This document shows, piece by piece, positions 22,460 through 35,299 of a stretch of DNA of 35,881 nt. Position 1 is the stretch's first letter. Each line of letters begins with the position of its first letter. Origin of the DNA: a virus. Its lineage: Duplodnaviria; Heunggongvirae; Uroviricota; Caudoviricetes. The position numbers were made by a program, and so were the translations under genes. Below the pieces are notes generated by a model. The model was not told the origin of the DNA. It was given only the letters and a program-made list of their open reading frames with translations, and searched no databases. The stretch lies in the IMG/VR virus record IMGVR_UViG_2541047915_000013, one strand, 5' to 3'.

Positions 22460-23890
22460 TCATCTTGAAAGTATCACCCGTTCAAACAATGGCATTAATT
22501 GAGAATAAACATTATCATAATGTTCATCATTTAAAAGATGATATTTATTTTCAAGTTTGATGCTATTAAAACCATCCATGAAACTCTCATAACCAACAGT
22601 GCCAATAATAATCTGATTTGTAAGGGAAAACCCATCCAAGCATAGTTTTATAAGCTTATGCGTATGCTCTGGATCCAAATCTTGTTGCTTTGGAGAGTCT
22701 ATTACTATAGGCATATTCTCAACTGAAGAGTTGCTTTTCATAACACTAAGTAGCGCGTAGTGAAATGCAAATATACCTCGAGGACCTCGACTACCAGTCT
22801 TACCCTTAGTAATATTATTATAACTACTAAGGCCACCTACCTTTGTATTTTCGACACCAAGCTCTTTAAGAGCTTTAGCGAAATACTCTTTGAAACAGTC
22901 ATTTATTTTAACAGTTCTTTTCTTATCATTGTATACTTCTAATTCTTCTTGTAATTCTGTCAACTCGCCTTCTTTTCGACCAATCTCAACGAATAACTCA
23001 TCTAACTGTGAAACAAAAGTAGATTCAATTTCATGGTATGCAGCAGATTTAATAACATCATGAAGCGTTATTTCCGATTGAGTTTCTAAAATCAGCGCCT
23101 GCAACGCCTCTGAAGCAGCCCTTGACTCTTCTAGCTTTTGATTCAATTTAGGAATATTTTCCTCAATCTTGCTTTTCTCATCTGCAAGAACAGCAATGTT
23201 TTTGAGCATTTCATCTCTATGGTTTATATAATTATATTCATTTACTGAATAAGCAACATTATCATCTCGAAAATTCGAAATCTCAAATTCATTATCAATA
23301 ATCGCAGTTATCTCTTTGAGTTCACTCTCAAGGAAATTCTTCCTAGAATATAACCTCAAAAGATTCAATCTATATTCTGTCTGAACTAAATTCAAATTAG
23401 AATATTCATTTAATATACGTTCTAACTTTGATTTATAAAAATCCAAATCAACATCAAATAAAACCACACCAAAAGATTCATCAATCTTACTTTTGCTTCT
23501 TTTTAGAACCTTAACAAAACCATCTAACTCTGAAATTTTAACTTTAACTTCTTTGATTTTCCCTTGAACTGTGTAATATTCCTTTGGCTTAATTCCAGAG
23601 TGATAGTAAAGAATGTTTTTTTGCCATTCTGAGTACATACTCATGTTTTCGAAAGAATTTATCACCGCTTTCCATCCTTCATCCTGATCAATAAAGAATG
23701 GGGCAAACAAACAAGCAGGGTTTGCCTGAGTCGTAGCACCCGTATATTTATTATGTAATTCCAGTTTAAAACCAAATATATTTGAAACACGAGATGCTAA
23801 TGACGAAATCGTGTTATACACGACTAGATCATCATTCTTCAAATCAAAGACACCAATAATCTTTTTATAACGCAAAAAAAATAAAATCAC
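22460..23890 (-). CDS. SMC/ABC-type ATPase, C-terminal part (LmuB/DUF3732-like), separated from its P-loop by a frameshift
   Basis: Long coiled-coil region, then PIVIDSP (Walker-B-like) and DPEH (H-loop-like); no Walker A in this ORF; about 30% GC. Confidence 0.6.
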   Translation of the reverse strand: MILFFLRYKKIIGVFDLKNDDLVVYNTISSLASRVSNIFGFKLELHNKYTGATTQANPACLFAPFFIDQDEGWKAVINSFENMSMYSEWQKNILYYHSGIKPKEYYTVQGKIKEVKVKISELDGFVKVLKRSKSKIDESFGVVLFDVDLDFYKSKLERILNEYSNLNLVQTEYRLNLLRLYSRKNFLESELKEITAIIDNEFEISNFRDDNVAYSVNEYNYINHRDEMLKNIAVLADEKSKIEENIPKLNQKLEESRAASEALQALILETQSEITLHDVIKSAAYHEIESTFVSQLDELFVEIGRKEGELTELQEELEVYNDKKRTVKINDCFKEYFAKALKELGVENTKVGGLSSYNNITKGKTGSRGPRGIFAFHYALLSVMKSNSSVENMPIVIDSPKQQDLDPEHTHKLIKLCLDGFSLTNQIIIGTVGYESFMDGFNSIKLENKYHLLNDEHYDNVYSQLMPLFERVILSR

Positions 23891-24134
23891 TTTCCCCGTT
23901 ATTAATTTCCACCAGTGTAACTATATCATCTGATTTCCAAGCATCATCAAGCCTTAAATCTCCACCTAATGTGTAATAAAGACTTTTAATCAGGCTTGAT
24001 TTACCAACATCATTTGTACCATATATGAAGTTAACCCCTTCTGAAAACTCATAAGAAAAAGCTTTTCTGTCTCTTAATGAGAGTATTTTTATATTTTTAA
24101 ATTTAACGTTATTCTTCATAAGAAACATCCTCAA
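23865..24134 (-). CDS. SMC/ABC-type ATPase, N-terminal P-loop fragment
   Basis: Walker A GTNDVGKSSL; frame ends inside a T8 tract where the downstream ORF continues in the +1 frame. Confidence 0.6.
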   Translation of the reverse strand: MRMFLMKNNVKFKNIKILSLRDRKAFSYEFSEGVNFIYGTNDVGKSSLIKSLYYTLGGDLRLDDAWKSDDIVTLVEINNGESDFIFFAL

Positions 24135-25188
24135 AAGTCAACTTTATAATTGCATATATAGCAATCATAAATTTCTCTTCTTGATTTAATAAAGAGAAAT
24201 CCCCGTCCCCCGCTGCAATTGTTTTTTCGAGTGTAAAGAAGAGGTCTCGAACAGGTATCTCACGATAATGCTCTATACTCTTTAGAGCCGATTGAAATTC
24301 CAGAAAATAAAGATAGTATATTGAATTGACATTGAGCACTTTTATTGATATGCGTGTAAAAACTGATTGTAATTTAATCCCCTCATAAGGATCTGAGAAA
24401 GTACCAAGCAACATACAAACCTGTTCCCATTTTGGCGTTATTTTTATGCTTGCAATGAGTCCAGATAATAAATCAGTTACAAATTCTGAAGATATACCTT
24501 TCTTTAGTACTAAATCTTCAAAAGTTTTGATATCACTAGAAGCAACACTAACCTTCTCATTACACTTATTGATTAATAATTTAGTGAATGCTGTTGAATT
24601 AATACCATGATCATCCCCAAAGTAAGAATTCAAAAAAACTGCAACTTTCCCGTATAAATGTGAGTTAGGATCTAACAAACTAAGATCAGATGTTTTAAAT
24701 TTTATTTTATCAAGAGGAACTTCTTTTTTAGTATTTAGCTGCTCTTGAACCTTACTAATTATAATTTCCTTATGCTCATTATTAAGATCACTACCTTTTT
24801 CGTTATTATCATTTAAGAAATCGAATCCAGCATTCGATAACAGAACCATATAAATTTCGTGACCAACGAATTGATAGAAATGGTCATATAGTTTTGCAAC
24901 AAATGATTTAGGTTTAGCTTTTGTTGCGTTCACTATTGCTGCGAGTGTCCATTTACCATCTTTTTTTGTTTTAACTTGGATAAACTCAGCACTAGTCGGA
25001 GAAACAGATGAATTCAATACAAGAATATCGTCATGATATTCAAATAGAAATAAATATTTCTCCTTTTCTTTTTGTTTCTCAAGTAAATAATTTATCCCCC
25101 AAGAGGCTTGATATGAAAAGCCTCTCAACGCGTTTTCACCGCCCCGTTCTGCTTGATTTACTGTAATTAACGCATCTGATAACGCCAC
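24109..25188 (-). CDS. PD-(D/E)xK nuclease-like protein of the Cap4/DUF4297 type (LmuA-like)
   Basis: N-terminal GGENALRGFSYQ ... YHDDILVL ... EFIQVK motifs; GTG start with AGGGA ribosome-binding site; about 30% GC. Confidence 0.55.
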   Translation of the reverse strand: MALSDALITVNQAERGGENALRGFSYQASWGINYLLEKQKEKEKYLFLFEYHDDILVLNSSVSPTSAEFIQVKTKKDGKWTLAAIVNATKAKPKSFVAKLYDHFYQFVGHEIYMVLLSNAGFDFLNDNNEKGSDLNNEHKEIIISKVQEQLNTKKEVPLDKIKFKTSDLSLLDPNSHLYGKVAVFLNSYFGDDHGINSTAFTKLLINKCNEKVSVASSDIKTFEDLVLKKGISSEFVTDLLSGLIASIKITPKWEQVCMLLGTFSDPYEGIKLQSVFTRISIKVLNVNSIYYLYFLEFQSALKSIEHYREIPVRDLFFTLEKTIAAGDGDFSLLNQEEKFMIAIYAIIKLTFEDVSYEE

Positions 25189-31293: not shown

Positions 31294-31926
31294 ATGATAC
31301 AGGTAAAGGTTGGAGAGAATACAGGGGGAAGAGAGGCTATCCATAGACTAATGGCAGCCTATGATTTCAAGTCCAGACAGCAACTTTGCGATCACTTAGG
31401 CGCATCAAAAAGTACCATGGCAAACAGATACTTAAGAGATAGTTTTCCTGCAGAGTGGGTGATTCAGTGCGCCTTGGAAACAGGAGTTTCTTTACTGTGG
31501 CTAACCACCGGACAGGGGGAGCCAGGTCCAAACATTGAACCTAAAAAAAATATCAATTCCGTGAACTCCAGCAAGGTTGTACCTCTTTCTGAACTAGTAT
31601 CTCCTGAAATTGACAAGGCGACTCTCAACGGTGGTTTATTGGTCGATGCTGGAAAAGCAATCATTGATAGCAGCATACTCCCCTCAGACTCAAGCAACCT
31701 ACTGCTGGTGACTACTTCTGGTGATTCTTATTTAATAGATCGCAACCAAACACCACCAGTAAATGGTATGTGGTTAGTCGATATTGACGGGATAAAAAGC
31801 ATTGTTAAATTGACTCGACTTCCGGGAAACAAATTAGTAGTGCATCAGGATGATTCATCGTTTGAGTGTGGCCTAGATGACATTGAGGTAGTAGGCCGCG
31901 CACTGAAAATCATTAAGAGCCTTTGA
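31294..31926 (+). CDS. cI: CI-like immunity repressor
   Basis: 210-aa protein with N-terminal helix-turn-helix-like region; co-oriented with int. Confidence 0.7.
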   Translation: MIQVKVGENTGGREAIHRLMAAYDFKSRQQLCDHLGASKSTMANRYLRDSFPAEWVIQCALETGVSLLWLTTGQGEPGPNIEPKKNINSVNSSKVVPLSELVSPEIDKATLNGGLLVDAGKAIIDSSILPSDSSNLLLVTTSGDSYLIDRNQTPPVNGMWLVDIDGIKSIVKLTRLPGNKLVVHQDDSSFECGLDDIEVVGRALKIIKSL

Positions 31927-31927
31927 T

Positions 31928-32944
31928 ATGACCATCAGAAAACAGCCGAACGGAAAATGGTTGTGTGAGTGCTATCCCAATGGACGCAATGGTAAGCGCG
32001 TGCGTAAGCAATTTGCTACGAAAGGCGAAGCCATTGCTTTTGAAAGCTTCACAATGGAAGAAGTGAATAAAAAACCGTGGTTGGGTGAAAAGGATGATCG
32101 GCGACGCCTATCAGAATTAATTGAGCTTTGGTATTCCCTGTATGGTCAGACACTCGCAGACCCCAAGCGCCTCATGGCGAAACTTAGAATTATCTGTAAT
32201 GGTCTAGGCGACCCCATCGCCTCAGAACTGACAGCCGGTGACTTTACGAAATACCGCGAAGCACGGTTAAAAGGTGACGTTCGTAACGAAGACGGCACAC
32301 TAATGTCGCCAGTAAAACCACGCACGGTGAATCTTGAGCAACGTAACCTATCATCGGTTTTCGGCACATTGAAAAAACTAGGCCACTGGTCAGCACCAAA
32401 TCCTCTCGCCGGGCTGCCAACATTTAAAATCGCTGAGGGGGAACTGGCGTTCCTGACCTCGGAAGAAATTAAACGTCTGCTAGATGCCTGCGCTGATTCT
32501 CAAAACCCCAGTCTGCTTTTGATTGCAAAAATATGCCTGGCCACCGGCGCACGCTGGAGTGAAGCTGAAAACCTGCAGGGCCATCAGTTATCTAAATACC
32601 GCATCACTTATACCAAGACGAAGGGTAAGAAAAACCGCACCGTGCCGATATCTCAAGATCTGTATGACGAACTCCCCAAGAACAGAGGGAAGCTATTCAC
32701 CCCGTGCAGAAAAGCCTTTGAACGAGCAGTAAAGCGAGCTGGCATCGAGCTGCCAGAGGGCCAATGCACTCACGTGCTACGTCATACATTCGCCAGCCAT
32801 TTTATGATGAATGGCGGAAACATACTGGTGCTGCGCGATATTCTGGGCCATGCCGATATAAAAATGACGATGATTTACGCCCACTTTTCGCCCGATCACC
32901 TTGAAGATGCGGTAACTAAAAACCCTTTATGCAACTTAAGATAG
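31928..32944 (+). CDS. int: Tyrosine integrase (P2/186 family)
   Basis: 338 aa; ...ATGARWSEA..., ...HVLRHTFASHFMMNGG... and ...MIYAHF motifs typical of P2-type integrases. Confidence 0.9.
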   Translation: MTIRKQPNGKWLCECYPNGRNGKRVRKQFATKGEAIAFESFTMEEVNKKPWLGEKDDRRRLSELIELWYSLYGQTLADPKRLMAKLRIICNGLGDPIASELTAGDFTKYREARLKGDVRNEDGTLMSPVKPRTVNLEQRNLSSVFGTLKKLGHWSAPNPLAGLPTFKIAEGELAFLTSEEIKRLLDACADSQNPSLLLIAKICLATGARWSEAENLQGHQLSKYRITYTKTKGKKNRTVPISQDLYDELPKNRGKLFTPCRKAFERAVKRAGIELPEGQCTHVLRHTFASHFMMNGGNILVLRDILGHADIKMTMIYAHFSPDHLEDAVTKNPLCNLR

Positions 32945-33260
32945 AGTAACTTATGAAAACAAACTCAAACTATTTACAAATATAATATTCAGCAGGTTAT
33001 CCATTCTCATTTAACTCTTCAGACTGAGTTTAGGTTTTATTTATAGAATAAGATAATTTTTACATCACAAAAAAACCTATAAGCCCTCATCTTTGTTGTA
33101 TAAAAACATCAAAGATGCCACATTCAAAAATAGTAGAAAAGCATAGCATTGCAACATTAAAAAGAAACCAATAAAAAACAGTCATTAGAAAATGAAAAAA
33201 ACAAAAACATTTTTTATCGAAGCTTCAGTCTGACTACTAGTTTGACTCTGCAATTAACTT

Positions 33261-33290
33261 TCAAGATGATCAATATTTATTGATCATCTT
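33261..33290. repeat. Perfect 13-bp inverted repeat (hairpin) carrying two GATC sites
   Basis: CAAGATGATCAAT-attt-ATTGATCATCTTG, 35 bp beyond the deaminase stop. Confidence 0.7.
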
Positions 33291-33324
33291 GAAGCTTACC
33301 TCAGGAAGGATGAGTATAATATTT

Positions 33325-35058
33325 CTACTCAAGGAGATATTCTAACTCATCTTTTATCGGGATAATTTGCTCATAAAGTCGGTGATATGACTTCCCAATT
33401 GCGCCTCTAAATTGTATTAACTTTGGTGGCTTACTACCTATATTAATAATATGGTCTTGAGCTATACCTGGGTAGGGATCAATAAATACAATTTCAGATA
33501 TACCTAACTGATAAGCTTTTTTCGCACACAACTCACAGGGACTGGCAGTTGTATACAACTTCCCCCCCAGAACGCCAATACCACCATATTTTGCAAGTTG
33601 CAAAAATGCGTTTTCCTCAGCATGTAATGCACGTGTATGAACTTGATTACCTTTTTTCTCTTTATCAAGATCATTATGTATATCTTTAAAACAATAAGAT
33701 AAGTTCCTGCCTCTATAAATATCACCAGTTTTATCTATCGCCCTAAAATTTAAGAGTTTCTCATTAGCTTTAATTCTGAAAGAACTATTATTTCTCTCAT
33801 AATGACTGTACGTTTTTTCATCAAAATCGTTCATTAGGCCATCTAGAGATCTCATAGAGCAAGGAATCTGACCGTTGGCAACATCATTCCAACCAACTGA
33901 TTTTATTGAATTATCACCATCAGTTACTACAGCTCCCACCTGTCTAGATATACAGCCAGAGTTTAATTTTACCGTATACGCAACTTGCATAACCCTTTCC
34001 ATTGCAGTAGGTGTTATCAGACCAGGATGCTTCATCAGTGCGATGTACCACGCTAATTGTGCTTTTAAAATATTGTCATTATCAAATTCATTTTTTGGGT
34101 TAAAAATGTGTATATCTGATAGTTCAATACATTTAGTTACATTTGGATTGGTGAGATGTTTGTAAGAGTTATCACCTTTACCTGACTCTACAGAATCTAT
34201 TTCCTCTATCTGCTTTTCTGAAAACTTATGTAGTTTCCGCAAATAGTTTGTTCGATGTTCATCCGGGGCATTTATTGACATTAAATGAAATGCAGAATAT
34301 CTATCCTTAAAAAATTTTGCCTCATATGGATTTCTAATAGCATCTATGACAATTAATGCGTTATCTCTTTTGCTTTTTCTTATTAATTTAATAACCCTAT
34401 TAATAGTTTCCGGCAAATGAAAAACAGATTTAGGCATAAACTCTTTATCTTCAAAATCGACTTCAATACGCCCACGACGTCTAATTGACTTACCTGCTAA
34501 CTGATAGGCTGAAACATATAAATTTGAGTTTATCTCATTTAGTTCAGCTTTGAATTCTTTAGTAAATTTTCTAACTAACTTCAAAATTGATATAAATTTA
34601 TTAATCGTTTTTTCATCAAGCTTCAATTCACTATTATGATCAAGCAAATTCTCAATTACATTTTTAAATCTTGTCAAAATGAGATTATCTGAGAATACAC
34701 CAAAAGTTAATACAATATCTAAATGCTCTTTACTGATAGATTTATTAGATGATAGAATGAATTCAGAAGCTTCCTCAGCTGTTAACATCAGAAGATACGC
34801 TGAGATTAGGTCACTCACCTTAATTGAGTAAAAATTTTCCCAGTGATTTTCTGCGAATTTTTTAACTATATTATAACGATGGACATCCAATCCCTTGTAA
34901 AACCCCTGTAATTTACTTACATCAGGGAAGACTGTTTTTTCGTTTTCAAGAATATTAGCTGTTGTTGTGCAACCAGAACCAGTTCGACCTGTCAAACCGA
35001 CTAAAATAAACTGCCCATTTTCAAGGAAAAGCTCACTAACGAATTTTTTTTCTTTCAT
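33325..35058 (-). CDS. P-loop kinase-like / cytidine deaminase fusion protein (AvcD/dCTP-deaminase-like accessory gene)
   Basis: N-terminal P-loop GRTGSGCTT; C-terminal deaminase zinc motifs HAEENA and SPCELC; ATG at 35058; about 30% GC. Confidence 0.7.
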   Translation of the reverse strand: MKEKKFVSELFLENGQFILVGLTGRTGSGCTTTANILENEKTVFPDVSKLQGFYKGLDVHRYNIVKKFAENHWENFYSIKVSDLISAYLLMLTAEEASEFILSSNKSISKEHLDIVLTFGVFSDNLILTRFKNVIENLLDHNSELKLDEKTINKFISILKLVRKFTKEFKAELNEINSNLYVSAYQLAGKSIRRRGRIEVDFEDKEFMPKSVFHLPETINRVIKLIRKSKRDNALIVIDAIRNPYEAKFFKDRYSAFHLMSINAPDEHRTNYLRKLHKFSEKQIEEIDSVESGKGDNSYKHLTNPNVTKCIELSDIHIFNPKNEFDNDNILKAQLAWYIALMKHPGLITPTAMERVMQVAYTVKLNSGCISRQVGAVVTDGDNSIKSVGWNDVANGQIPCSMRSLDGLMNDFDEKTYSHYERNNSSFRIKANEKLLNFRAIDKTGDIYRGRNLSYCFKDIHNDLDKEKKGNQVHTRALHAEENAFLQLAKYGGIGVLGGKLYTTASPCELCAKKAYQLGISEIVFIDPYPGIAQDHIINIGSKPPKLIQFRGAIGKSYHRLYEQIIPIKDELEYLLE

Positions 35059-35253
35059 CACGTCCCACTTATGAATGCAAGAACAATTAACATATTAATT
35101 GTAATTTATTAACTAATTTTATTCTAGATACTTGATGTAATGGCGGCACTTTGGCGGCAGAGCATTAAAAACGCGTAAGACGAGCAAATACAAAATAACA
35201 CTAACACATTGTTTTCAAACATAATCTACTGTTTTTACTATAATAAAAATGGT

Positions 35254-35299
35254 ATGTAGGAATTTCGGACGCGGGTTCAACTCCCGCCAGCTCCACCAA
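35254..35299. repeat. attR core: second copy of the 46-bp ssrA 3'-end repeat
   Basis: Exact copy of 1016-1061; not a second tmRNA gene, only the terminal 46 bp. Confidence 0.85.

Follow-up and report, generated by a model that had tools for sequence, protein, structure and literature searches.

Cysteine at the Walker A lysine position of an AvcD/DcdV-family anti-phage dCTP deaminase encoded by a prophage

Introduction

Anti-phage dCTP deaminases of the AvcD/DcdV family have been described from Escherichia coli AW1.7 (WP_045268677.1; Tal et al. 2021/2022) and from Vibrio. A gene for a protein of this family is present in the 35,881-nucleotide IMG/VR virus record IMGVR_UViG_2541047915_000013 (Caudoviricetes), the whole of which is called the window here. 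The open reading frame (ORF) is located on the minus strand at 33325..35061, and its P-loop carries a cysteine in the place of the Walker A lysine. Residues are numbered from the ATG at 35058, which gives a protein of 577 amino acids (aa) and places the cysteine at position 30; from the GTG start the protein has 578 aa and the cysteine is residue 31.

The AW1.7 enzyme is 72% identical to the window protein over its full length and has the same two domains. Its P-loop, GLTGRTGSGCTTT, is identical, and G29 and C30 have equal residue numbers in the two proteins. The original prediction, made from the letters of the window, left open whether characterised homologues share the substitution; AW1.7 does. 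In that enzyme the double mutation G29A+C30A cost the protein both its protection against phage and its ability to deplete dCTP (Tal et al., bioRxiv 10.1101/2021.04.26.441389). Because the loop and the numbering are the same, the equivalent of the window's cysteine has already been mutated, together with an invariant glycine. The AW1.7 gene lies beside an integrase on a mobile element, as does the gene in the window. However, the AW1.7 element is an island at tRNA-Phe, whereas the window holds a 186/P2-like prophage at ssrA, and the regions upstream of the two genes are unrelated.

AvcD/DcdV of Vibrio cholerae (VC0175), which is paired with the AvcI/DifV RNA, also has a P-loop kinase-like domain and a dCMP-deaminase domain, both of which are required. 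It is located on a mobile island and has a role in phage defence. It differs from the window protein in being 532 aa long, with a shorter N-terminal domain and the HAE motif at 382 instead of 479. A 152-174-nucleotide inhibitor RNA is found directly 5' of its gene, and no equivalent was found in the window. The Walker A motif of this protein is non-canonical and was mutated to lysine by the authors, at a residue that is putatively in the same column as the cysteine. This mutation, S52K, and the double mutation D162A+Q163A each abolished toxicity at normal protein levels, and three of five mutations that made DcdV insensitive to the inhibitor RNA were in the kinase-like domain, which was termed "of unknown function" (bioRxiv 10.1101/2021.03.31.437871). 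For the V. parahaemolyticus enzyme, the inactive control was S47K+E376K (PMC10511110 supplement). S52 of V. cholerae and S47 of V. parahaemolyticus are likely to stand in the cysteine column. A homologue search seeded with a natural serine variant (P0264) returned Sulfurimonas/Campylobacterota relatives and no Vibrio, and when genomes were scanned with a primer published for V. parahaemolyticus, chance matches alone came up.

Identity of the Gene

The ORF is carried by a prophage and encodes a full-length member of the AvcD/DcdV family of anti-phage dCTP deaminases. Membership in the family is assigned because the protein scores above the cut-off of the NCBIfam equivalog NF041025, "anti-phage dCTP deaminase" (425.4 bits against 400, aa 18-570 of the ORF), matches the PADLOC dCTPase model at 1.2e-145, shares 72% identity with the AW1.7 enzyme and has intact HAE and PCxxC motifs. 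The AvcD family had been named as a guess in the original prediction, and the guess was right. The layout of the family, an N-terminal P-loop kinase-like domain followed by a C-terminal zinc deaminase, is present in the protein.

The DNA of the ORF is 99.9% identical to E. coli RefSeq genes that bear the anti-phage dCTP deaminase annotation, and near-identical genes with the same name occur in at least 11 complete E. coli genomes. In E. coli FDAARGOS_1337, whose copy of the gene is 99.9% identical, PGAP chose as start the ATG that corresponds to 35058. The defence family is a known one and the cysteine P-loop is its known hallmark; RefSeq already has an annotation of the gene. What looked like a defect becomes an annotation: an intact anti-phage dCTP deaminase carried by a prophage.

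Position of the Cysteine in the P-loop

The cysteine codon is TGC (GCA on the plus strand) and occupies 34969..34971 on the minus strand. The peptide around it had been read earlier as G-R-T-G-S-G-C-T-T with a TGC codon, and this reading is exact. The P-loop, GLTGRTGSGCTT (aa 21-32), lies at 34963..34998 on the minus strand, as delimited by the column counts and by the strand-loop-helix arrangement in structure models. It belongs to an N-terminal domain with the fold of nucleoside monophosphate (NMP) kinases, which covers aa 1-345 (34024..35058, minus strand) and contains a helical insertion of about 100 aa. The canonical Walker A motif is GxxxxGK[ST]; in this loop the lysine column holds a cysteine.

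A profile was built from 22 diverse N-terminal domains and aligned to known structures. The loop of the profile, GLTGrlGSGCttt, was placed onto ITGMPGSGKSEF of SSO1041 (3lw7/3h0k, E 2e-4) and onto GVTGKIGTGKST and GITGNIGSGKST of dephospho-CoA kinases (2grj, E 1e-3; 1uf9, E 3e-3), the aligned loops of which are GTGKST/GSGKST. The cysteine fell on the lysine in every one of these alignments. The DAxRNxxE motif of the domain was aligned with DGVRSLAE of SSO1041. Structure prediction with AlphaFold2 gave a predicted local distance difference test score (pLDDT) of 91.1 and a predicted template modelling score of 0.90 for the full protein, and a pLDDT of 89 for the N-terminal domain alone. In the models the motif is the loop that joins the strand at 17-23 to the helix at 30-38, with a local pLDDT of 93-96, which is the classical place of a P-loop. 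The original prediction allowed that the true Walker A might lie elsewhere in the domain. The sole other string of this form, AYQLAGKS (aa 184-191), is within a helix and has its lysine in 22 of 107 homologues; it was rejected as a chance match. From the profile alignments, the strand-loop-helix of the models and the exclusion of this string, Cys30 is at the true Walker A lysine position and is not part of a chance motif. The kinase-like domain and the replacement of its lysine by cysteine, both named in the original prediction, are borne out by the profile alignment, the fold being of the NMP-kinase/dephospho-CoA-kinase type.

Outside the P-loop, the N-terminal domain has the conserved motifs Q186-x-x-G189-x-x-I-R193 and D239-A-x-R242-N243-x-x-E246, together with R253, R269, C310, D315 and N320. 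Among these, Q186, G189, R193, D239, R242, N243, E246, R253 and R269 show little or no variation, and the same holds for G21 and G29 of the loop. The NMP-kinase fold is thus present with its Mg-site aspartate and with its NMP-site and LID arginines. SSO1041 of Sulfolobus solfataricus (UPF0200, "AdkA-like") shares the P-loop, the D-x-x-R-x-x-x-E motif, the LID arginine and a terminal D-x-x-x-x-N strand, but it has the canonical GSGKS lysine, lacks both the helical insertion and a fused deaminase, and is only 17% identical. The loop is also nearly that of CoaE, GxTGxIGSGKST, and the arginine motifs are placed equivalently in CoaE and in the NMP kinases (UMP, CMP, adenylate and T4 dNMP kinases). 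Here the lysine has become a cysteine, however, and the curated kinase models score below their cut-offs, with 13.7 against 65.55 bits for TIGR00152 (dephospho-CoA kinase) and 14 against 29.4 for Pfam AAA_18. Kinase activity is without support from this comparison.

Conservation of the Cysteine across the Family

The original prediction implied that the substitution might be a peculiarity of a single gene, and proposed an alignment with AvcD-family proteins at this column. The alignment finds the cysteine conserved, and the implied peculiarity was wrong. In close homologues that retain the N-terminus (58-89% identity), the cysteine is present in 115 of 115. A search with the N-terminal domain alone was made against 1.84 billion cluster representatives (50%-identity clusters), from which 150 matches were listed, down to about 27% identity. 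Among the matches listed, 140 align across the P-loop, with 137 cysteines, two serines, one valine and no lysine. A second, distant clade has 85 cysteines, six serines, two valines and one phenylalanine. When the distinct homologues are pooled (n=345), among them sequences with no more than about 30% identity in the N-terminal domain, the column contains 334 cysteines, seven serines, three valines, one phenylalanine and no lysine. The signature of the family P-loop can be written as G-L-T-G-x-x-G-S-G-C-[TS]. The copy on an integrative conjugative element of E. coli LF82, which is 56% identical, has also kept the cysteine.

Judged by these sequences, the cysteine is a near-invariant family hallmark, held by about 97% of the members, and the family has a small uncharged residue in the place of the lysine. 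The Walker A lysine was lost in the ancestor that all members of the family share.

An alternative explanation is that the codon was misread in sequencing, or that the gene is decaying after a mutation that inactivated it recently. The departure from the textbook motif is all that speaks for this explanation, and it is refuted. Among the loci that were fetched, the codon is TGC in L001, L027 and L028 and TGT in AW1.7, E. coli 600468 and L030-L032. The same residue is thus found in independent assemblies and species and with both cysteine codons, and it is accordingly under selection and no assembly artefact. An AAA or AAG codon, as resequencing might have revealed, is not what the independent assemblies read. 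In addition, the ORF is full length, it contains all of the invariant family residues, and its score with the family hidden Markov model is over the curated cut-off.

Some relatives have additional domains before the cysteine P-loop domain. These are TIR (P0222 and P0241), caspase/Peptidase_C14 (P0220) and DUF4062 (P0239), and the cysteine is kept in each. No deaminase was detected in P0239. Other relatives of about 800 aa carry a C-terminal extension of about 250 aa and have the cysteine as well.

Proposed Role of the Kinase-Like Domain

By analogy with homologues described in the literature, the closest tested one being 72% identical, the C-terminal zinc deaminase would convert dCTP and dCMP into dUTP and dUMP once phage infection stops host transcription, and this deamination would starve the phage of dCTP. 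The N-terminal domain seems to descend from P-loop kinases of the NMP-kinase/dephospho-CoA-kinase type and would no longer transfer phosphate. It appears to keep the glycine-rich anion hole, the Mg-site aspartate D239, R193 and R242, and the LID arginines R253 and R269. By motif order, R193 (GxxIR) and R242 (DAxR) would correspond to the arginines with which NMP kinases grip the phosphate of the acceptor nucleotide. We consider it reasonably probable that the domain is a non-catalytic module that binds a phosphate or nucleotide, and probably RNA, and that licenses the deaminase. Such a module may switch on the deaminase or position its substrate, and it would probably also be the binding site for the inhibitor RNA. 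Cys30 would then be part of a binding surface and not a lesion.

A P-loop without the lysine binds nucleotide and is a very poor phosphotransferase, and substitutions of the Walker A lysine in P-loop kinases lower kcat by orders of magnitude. From the missing lysine, the domain is most likely not an active kinase. It is nevertheless essential in the homologues that have been tested, AW1.7 and V. cholerae DcdV. An essential domain with no Walker A lysine in any of the 345 sequences argues against describing it as a kinase. The tabulation thereby states openly what the accessible papers use without discussing. The reported reaction products are deaminated nucleotides with unchanged mass, so that no phosphotransfer is needed to explain them. 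The observation made in the original prediction is confirmed, and its interpretation is partly supported overall: the kinase fold, the replaced lysine and the AvcD family hold, and a nucleotide-sensing or regulatory module is a candidate role for a domain that the accessible papers show to be indispensable.

Several points weigh against a purely binding role. The accessible literature contains no measurement of nucleotide binding and no exclusion of ATPase or kinase activity, and no study of the structure or mechanism of the domain came up in literature searches. Nearly all other residues of the catalytic site are kept, so the site might equally still do chemistry. The loss of function in AW1.7 cannot be assigned to the cysteine, since the mutant was a double one and G29 is itself invariant. 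The strong preference for cysteine over serine or alanine hints at a thiol-specific role beyond that of a simple binding module. Furthermore, an AvcI-like RNA was not identified at the locus.

If the site does still do chemistry, the N-terminal domain may be an enzyme with a non-canonical P-loop, active as a phosphotransferase or as an NTP (pyro)phosphatase. It might, for instance, take dCTP or dUTP in the direction of the monophosphate, both domains together then funnelling dCTP to dUMP, with some other basic residue such as R25 in GLTG-R replacing the lysine. We regard this as fairly unlikely. In its favour, D239, E246, R193, R242, R253 and R269 are conserved, and lysates with V. cholerae DcdV turned 1 µM dCTP into about 1 µM dUMP, from which the authors speculated that both domains contribute. 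However, host dUTPase explains the step from dUTP to dUMP in an E. coli lysate, and the authors could not exclude host factors. The effect of lysine substitutions on kcat is established enzymology, and not one lysine is found in the family column. An arginine or lysine does stand directly after GLTG in 249 of 345 sequences, but 46 of 107 diverse members have alanine in place of R25, and a whole clade, with GLTGA[LIV]GSGC, lacks it. Thus R25 is no general substitute for the lysine, and it was rejected as a general compensating mechanism.

The ratio of 334 cysteines to 11 of all other residues goes far beyond what "anything but lysine" would give. The cysteine may accordingly have been kept for its thiol, as a redox or electrophile sensor, as a metal ligand, or to gate the enzyme through a covalent intermediate (thiophosphate or nucleotidyl). 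A second cysteine of the N-terminal domain, C310 (34129-34131), is invariant in 107 of 107 homologues, which also favours this reading. Natural variants with serine (seven), valine (three) or phenylalanine (one) at position 30 nevertheless occur while C310 stays unchanged. A metal site, disulfide or nucleophile at position 30 is therefore not universally required, and a C30-C310 disulfide or metal site was rejected as a universal feature. The V. cholerae and V. parahaemolyticus enzymes, which are reported to be active, moreover have a Walker A serine at what is putatively the same position, the residue that was mutated to lysine. A thiol function of this kind appears quite unlikely.

Another reading would treat the GLTGxxGSG-C-[TS] loop as a distinct functional class of P-loop, with a particular task for the thiol and with the kinase-like domain as the actual sensor of infection. 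This task might, for instance, be to sense or bind a signal induced by the phage, the inhibitor RNA or a nucleotide, and so to trigger the deaminase. In some relatives the cysteine-loop module follows TIR, caspase and DUF4062 domains, which would agree with a sensor or switch that is reused. This reading is speculative and rather improbable.

The Deaminase Domain

The C-terminal zinc-dependent dCMP/cytidine deaminase domain is encoded at 33484..34002 on the minus strand (Pfam PF00383, 1.6e-14, aa 354-526) and is matched by dCMP deaminases in the Protein Data Bank (PDB). Its motifs are H479-A-E481 (33616-33624, minus strand) and P507-C508-x-x-C511 (33526-33540, minus strand). H479, E481, C508 and C511 are all present, in columns that are invariant among 107 homologues. 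The domain has the same fold and the same zinc and glutamate motifs as the dCMP deaminases of T4 (Cd, 1vq2), human (DCTD, 2w4l), S-TIM5 (4p9c) and PBCV-1 (bi-DCD, 7fh4). Those enzymes are stand-alone proteins of about 140-190 aa with an allosteric site for dCTP/dTTP, whereas the window protein has the kinase-fold domain instead. According to work on V. cholerae, dTTP does not inhibit that homologue. In the PDB, neither sequence search nor Foldseek turned up a structure of the family, the matches being stand-alone dCMP deaminases and kinases.

Cys369 (33952-33954) and Cys400 (33859-33861) are, like Cys310, invariant in the 107 homologues. They correspond to residues that Tal et al. mutated as presumed zinc ligands (C370A/C401A in AW1.7 numbering). 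The canonical zinc ligands are H479, C508 and C511, and Cys369 and Cys400 may hint at a second metal site or a structural site.

Full-length homologues were not found in sequenced phages, where there were only matches to the deaminase domain and one partial match. The "cytidine deaminase" of Burkholderia phage phiE094 (32378-33223) aligns from aa 237 of the window protein onward with 27% identity. This match covers the second half of the kinase-like domain and not the P-loop.

Prophage Setting and Flanking DNA

The window contains a 186/P2-like prophage that has ssrA as its integration site. The tmRNA gene occupies 698-1060. At 35254..35299 on the plus strand, attR repeats the 3' end of ssrA exactly over 46 bp, and the attL copy is at 1016-1061 within the tmRNA gene. 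Prophage genes for terminase, the replication protein gpA, the tail protein gpD, CI, CII, Fil and an integrase are present. The tyrosine integrase (31928..32944, plus strand) and the CI repressor (31294-31926) mark the right end of the prophage. The deaminase gene occupies the interval between the integrase and attR (32945-35253) and is thus inside a mobile element bounded by the 46-bp ssrA repeats. In E. coli C2 the same slot (L033, 4621-6996) holds two unrelated hypothetical genes, and the cargo of this site is thus variable.

A leader of 195 nucleotides separates the start codon from attR (35059..35253, minus strand), and the 125 nucleotides or so nearest to attR are phage backbone common to prophages without the deaminase gene. 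AvcI inhibitor RNAs have about 150-280 nucleotides and are encoded directly 5' of the deaminase gene, on the strand that it uses. A search of the leader for an AvcI-like RNA gave no Rfam match, no promoter-like site and no stable fold, the fold being worse than that of shuffled sequence (z = +2.1). AvcI RNAs are reported to be without sequence conservation, and non-detection in the leader therefore does not show absence.

The conserved attR-proximal backbone contains a direct repeat, two copies of TGGCGGCA (TGCCGCCA on the minus strand) at 35141-35159 with 11-bp spacing. Related loci have kept it, and it may be a pair of arm-type binding sites of the integrase. Nearer to the gene, about 25-45 nucleotides upstream of the deaminase start, is a perfect 8-bp palindrome, ACAATTAA-N4-TTAATTGT (35083-35102). 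A degenerate form of it is present upstream of the AW1.7 gene, and it could be an operator or promoter element. On the other side, directly 3' of the deaminase stop, there is an inverted repeat at 33255-33298 with 21-nucleotide arms that are 90% complementary and a 2-nucleotide loop. It lies within the gap of 380 nucleotides that separates the deaminase gene from the convergent integrase gene. The repeat is AT-rich, but for lack of a T-run it is no classical terminator.

The prophage also has a second defence system, Lamassu, at 22460-25188 on the minus strand. LmuA is encoded at 24109-25188 (PADLOC 4e-143; Pfam Cap4_nuclease) and LmuB at 22460-23890 (PADLOC 1e-208). The N-terminus of LmuB, including a Walker A motif GTNDVGKSS, is on a separate 89-aa ORF in another frame (23865-24134). 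For this reason lmuB looks frameshifted, as a result either of its being a pseudogene or of an assembly error.

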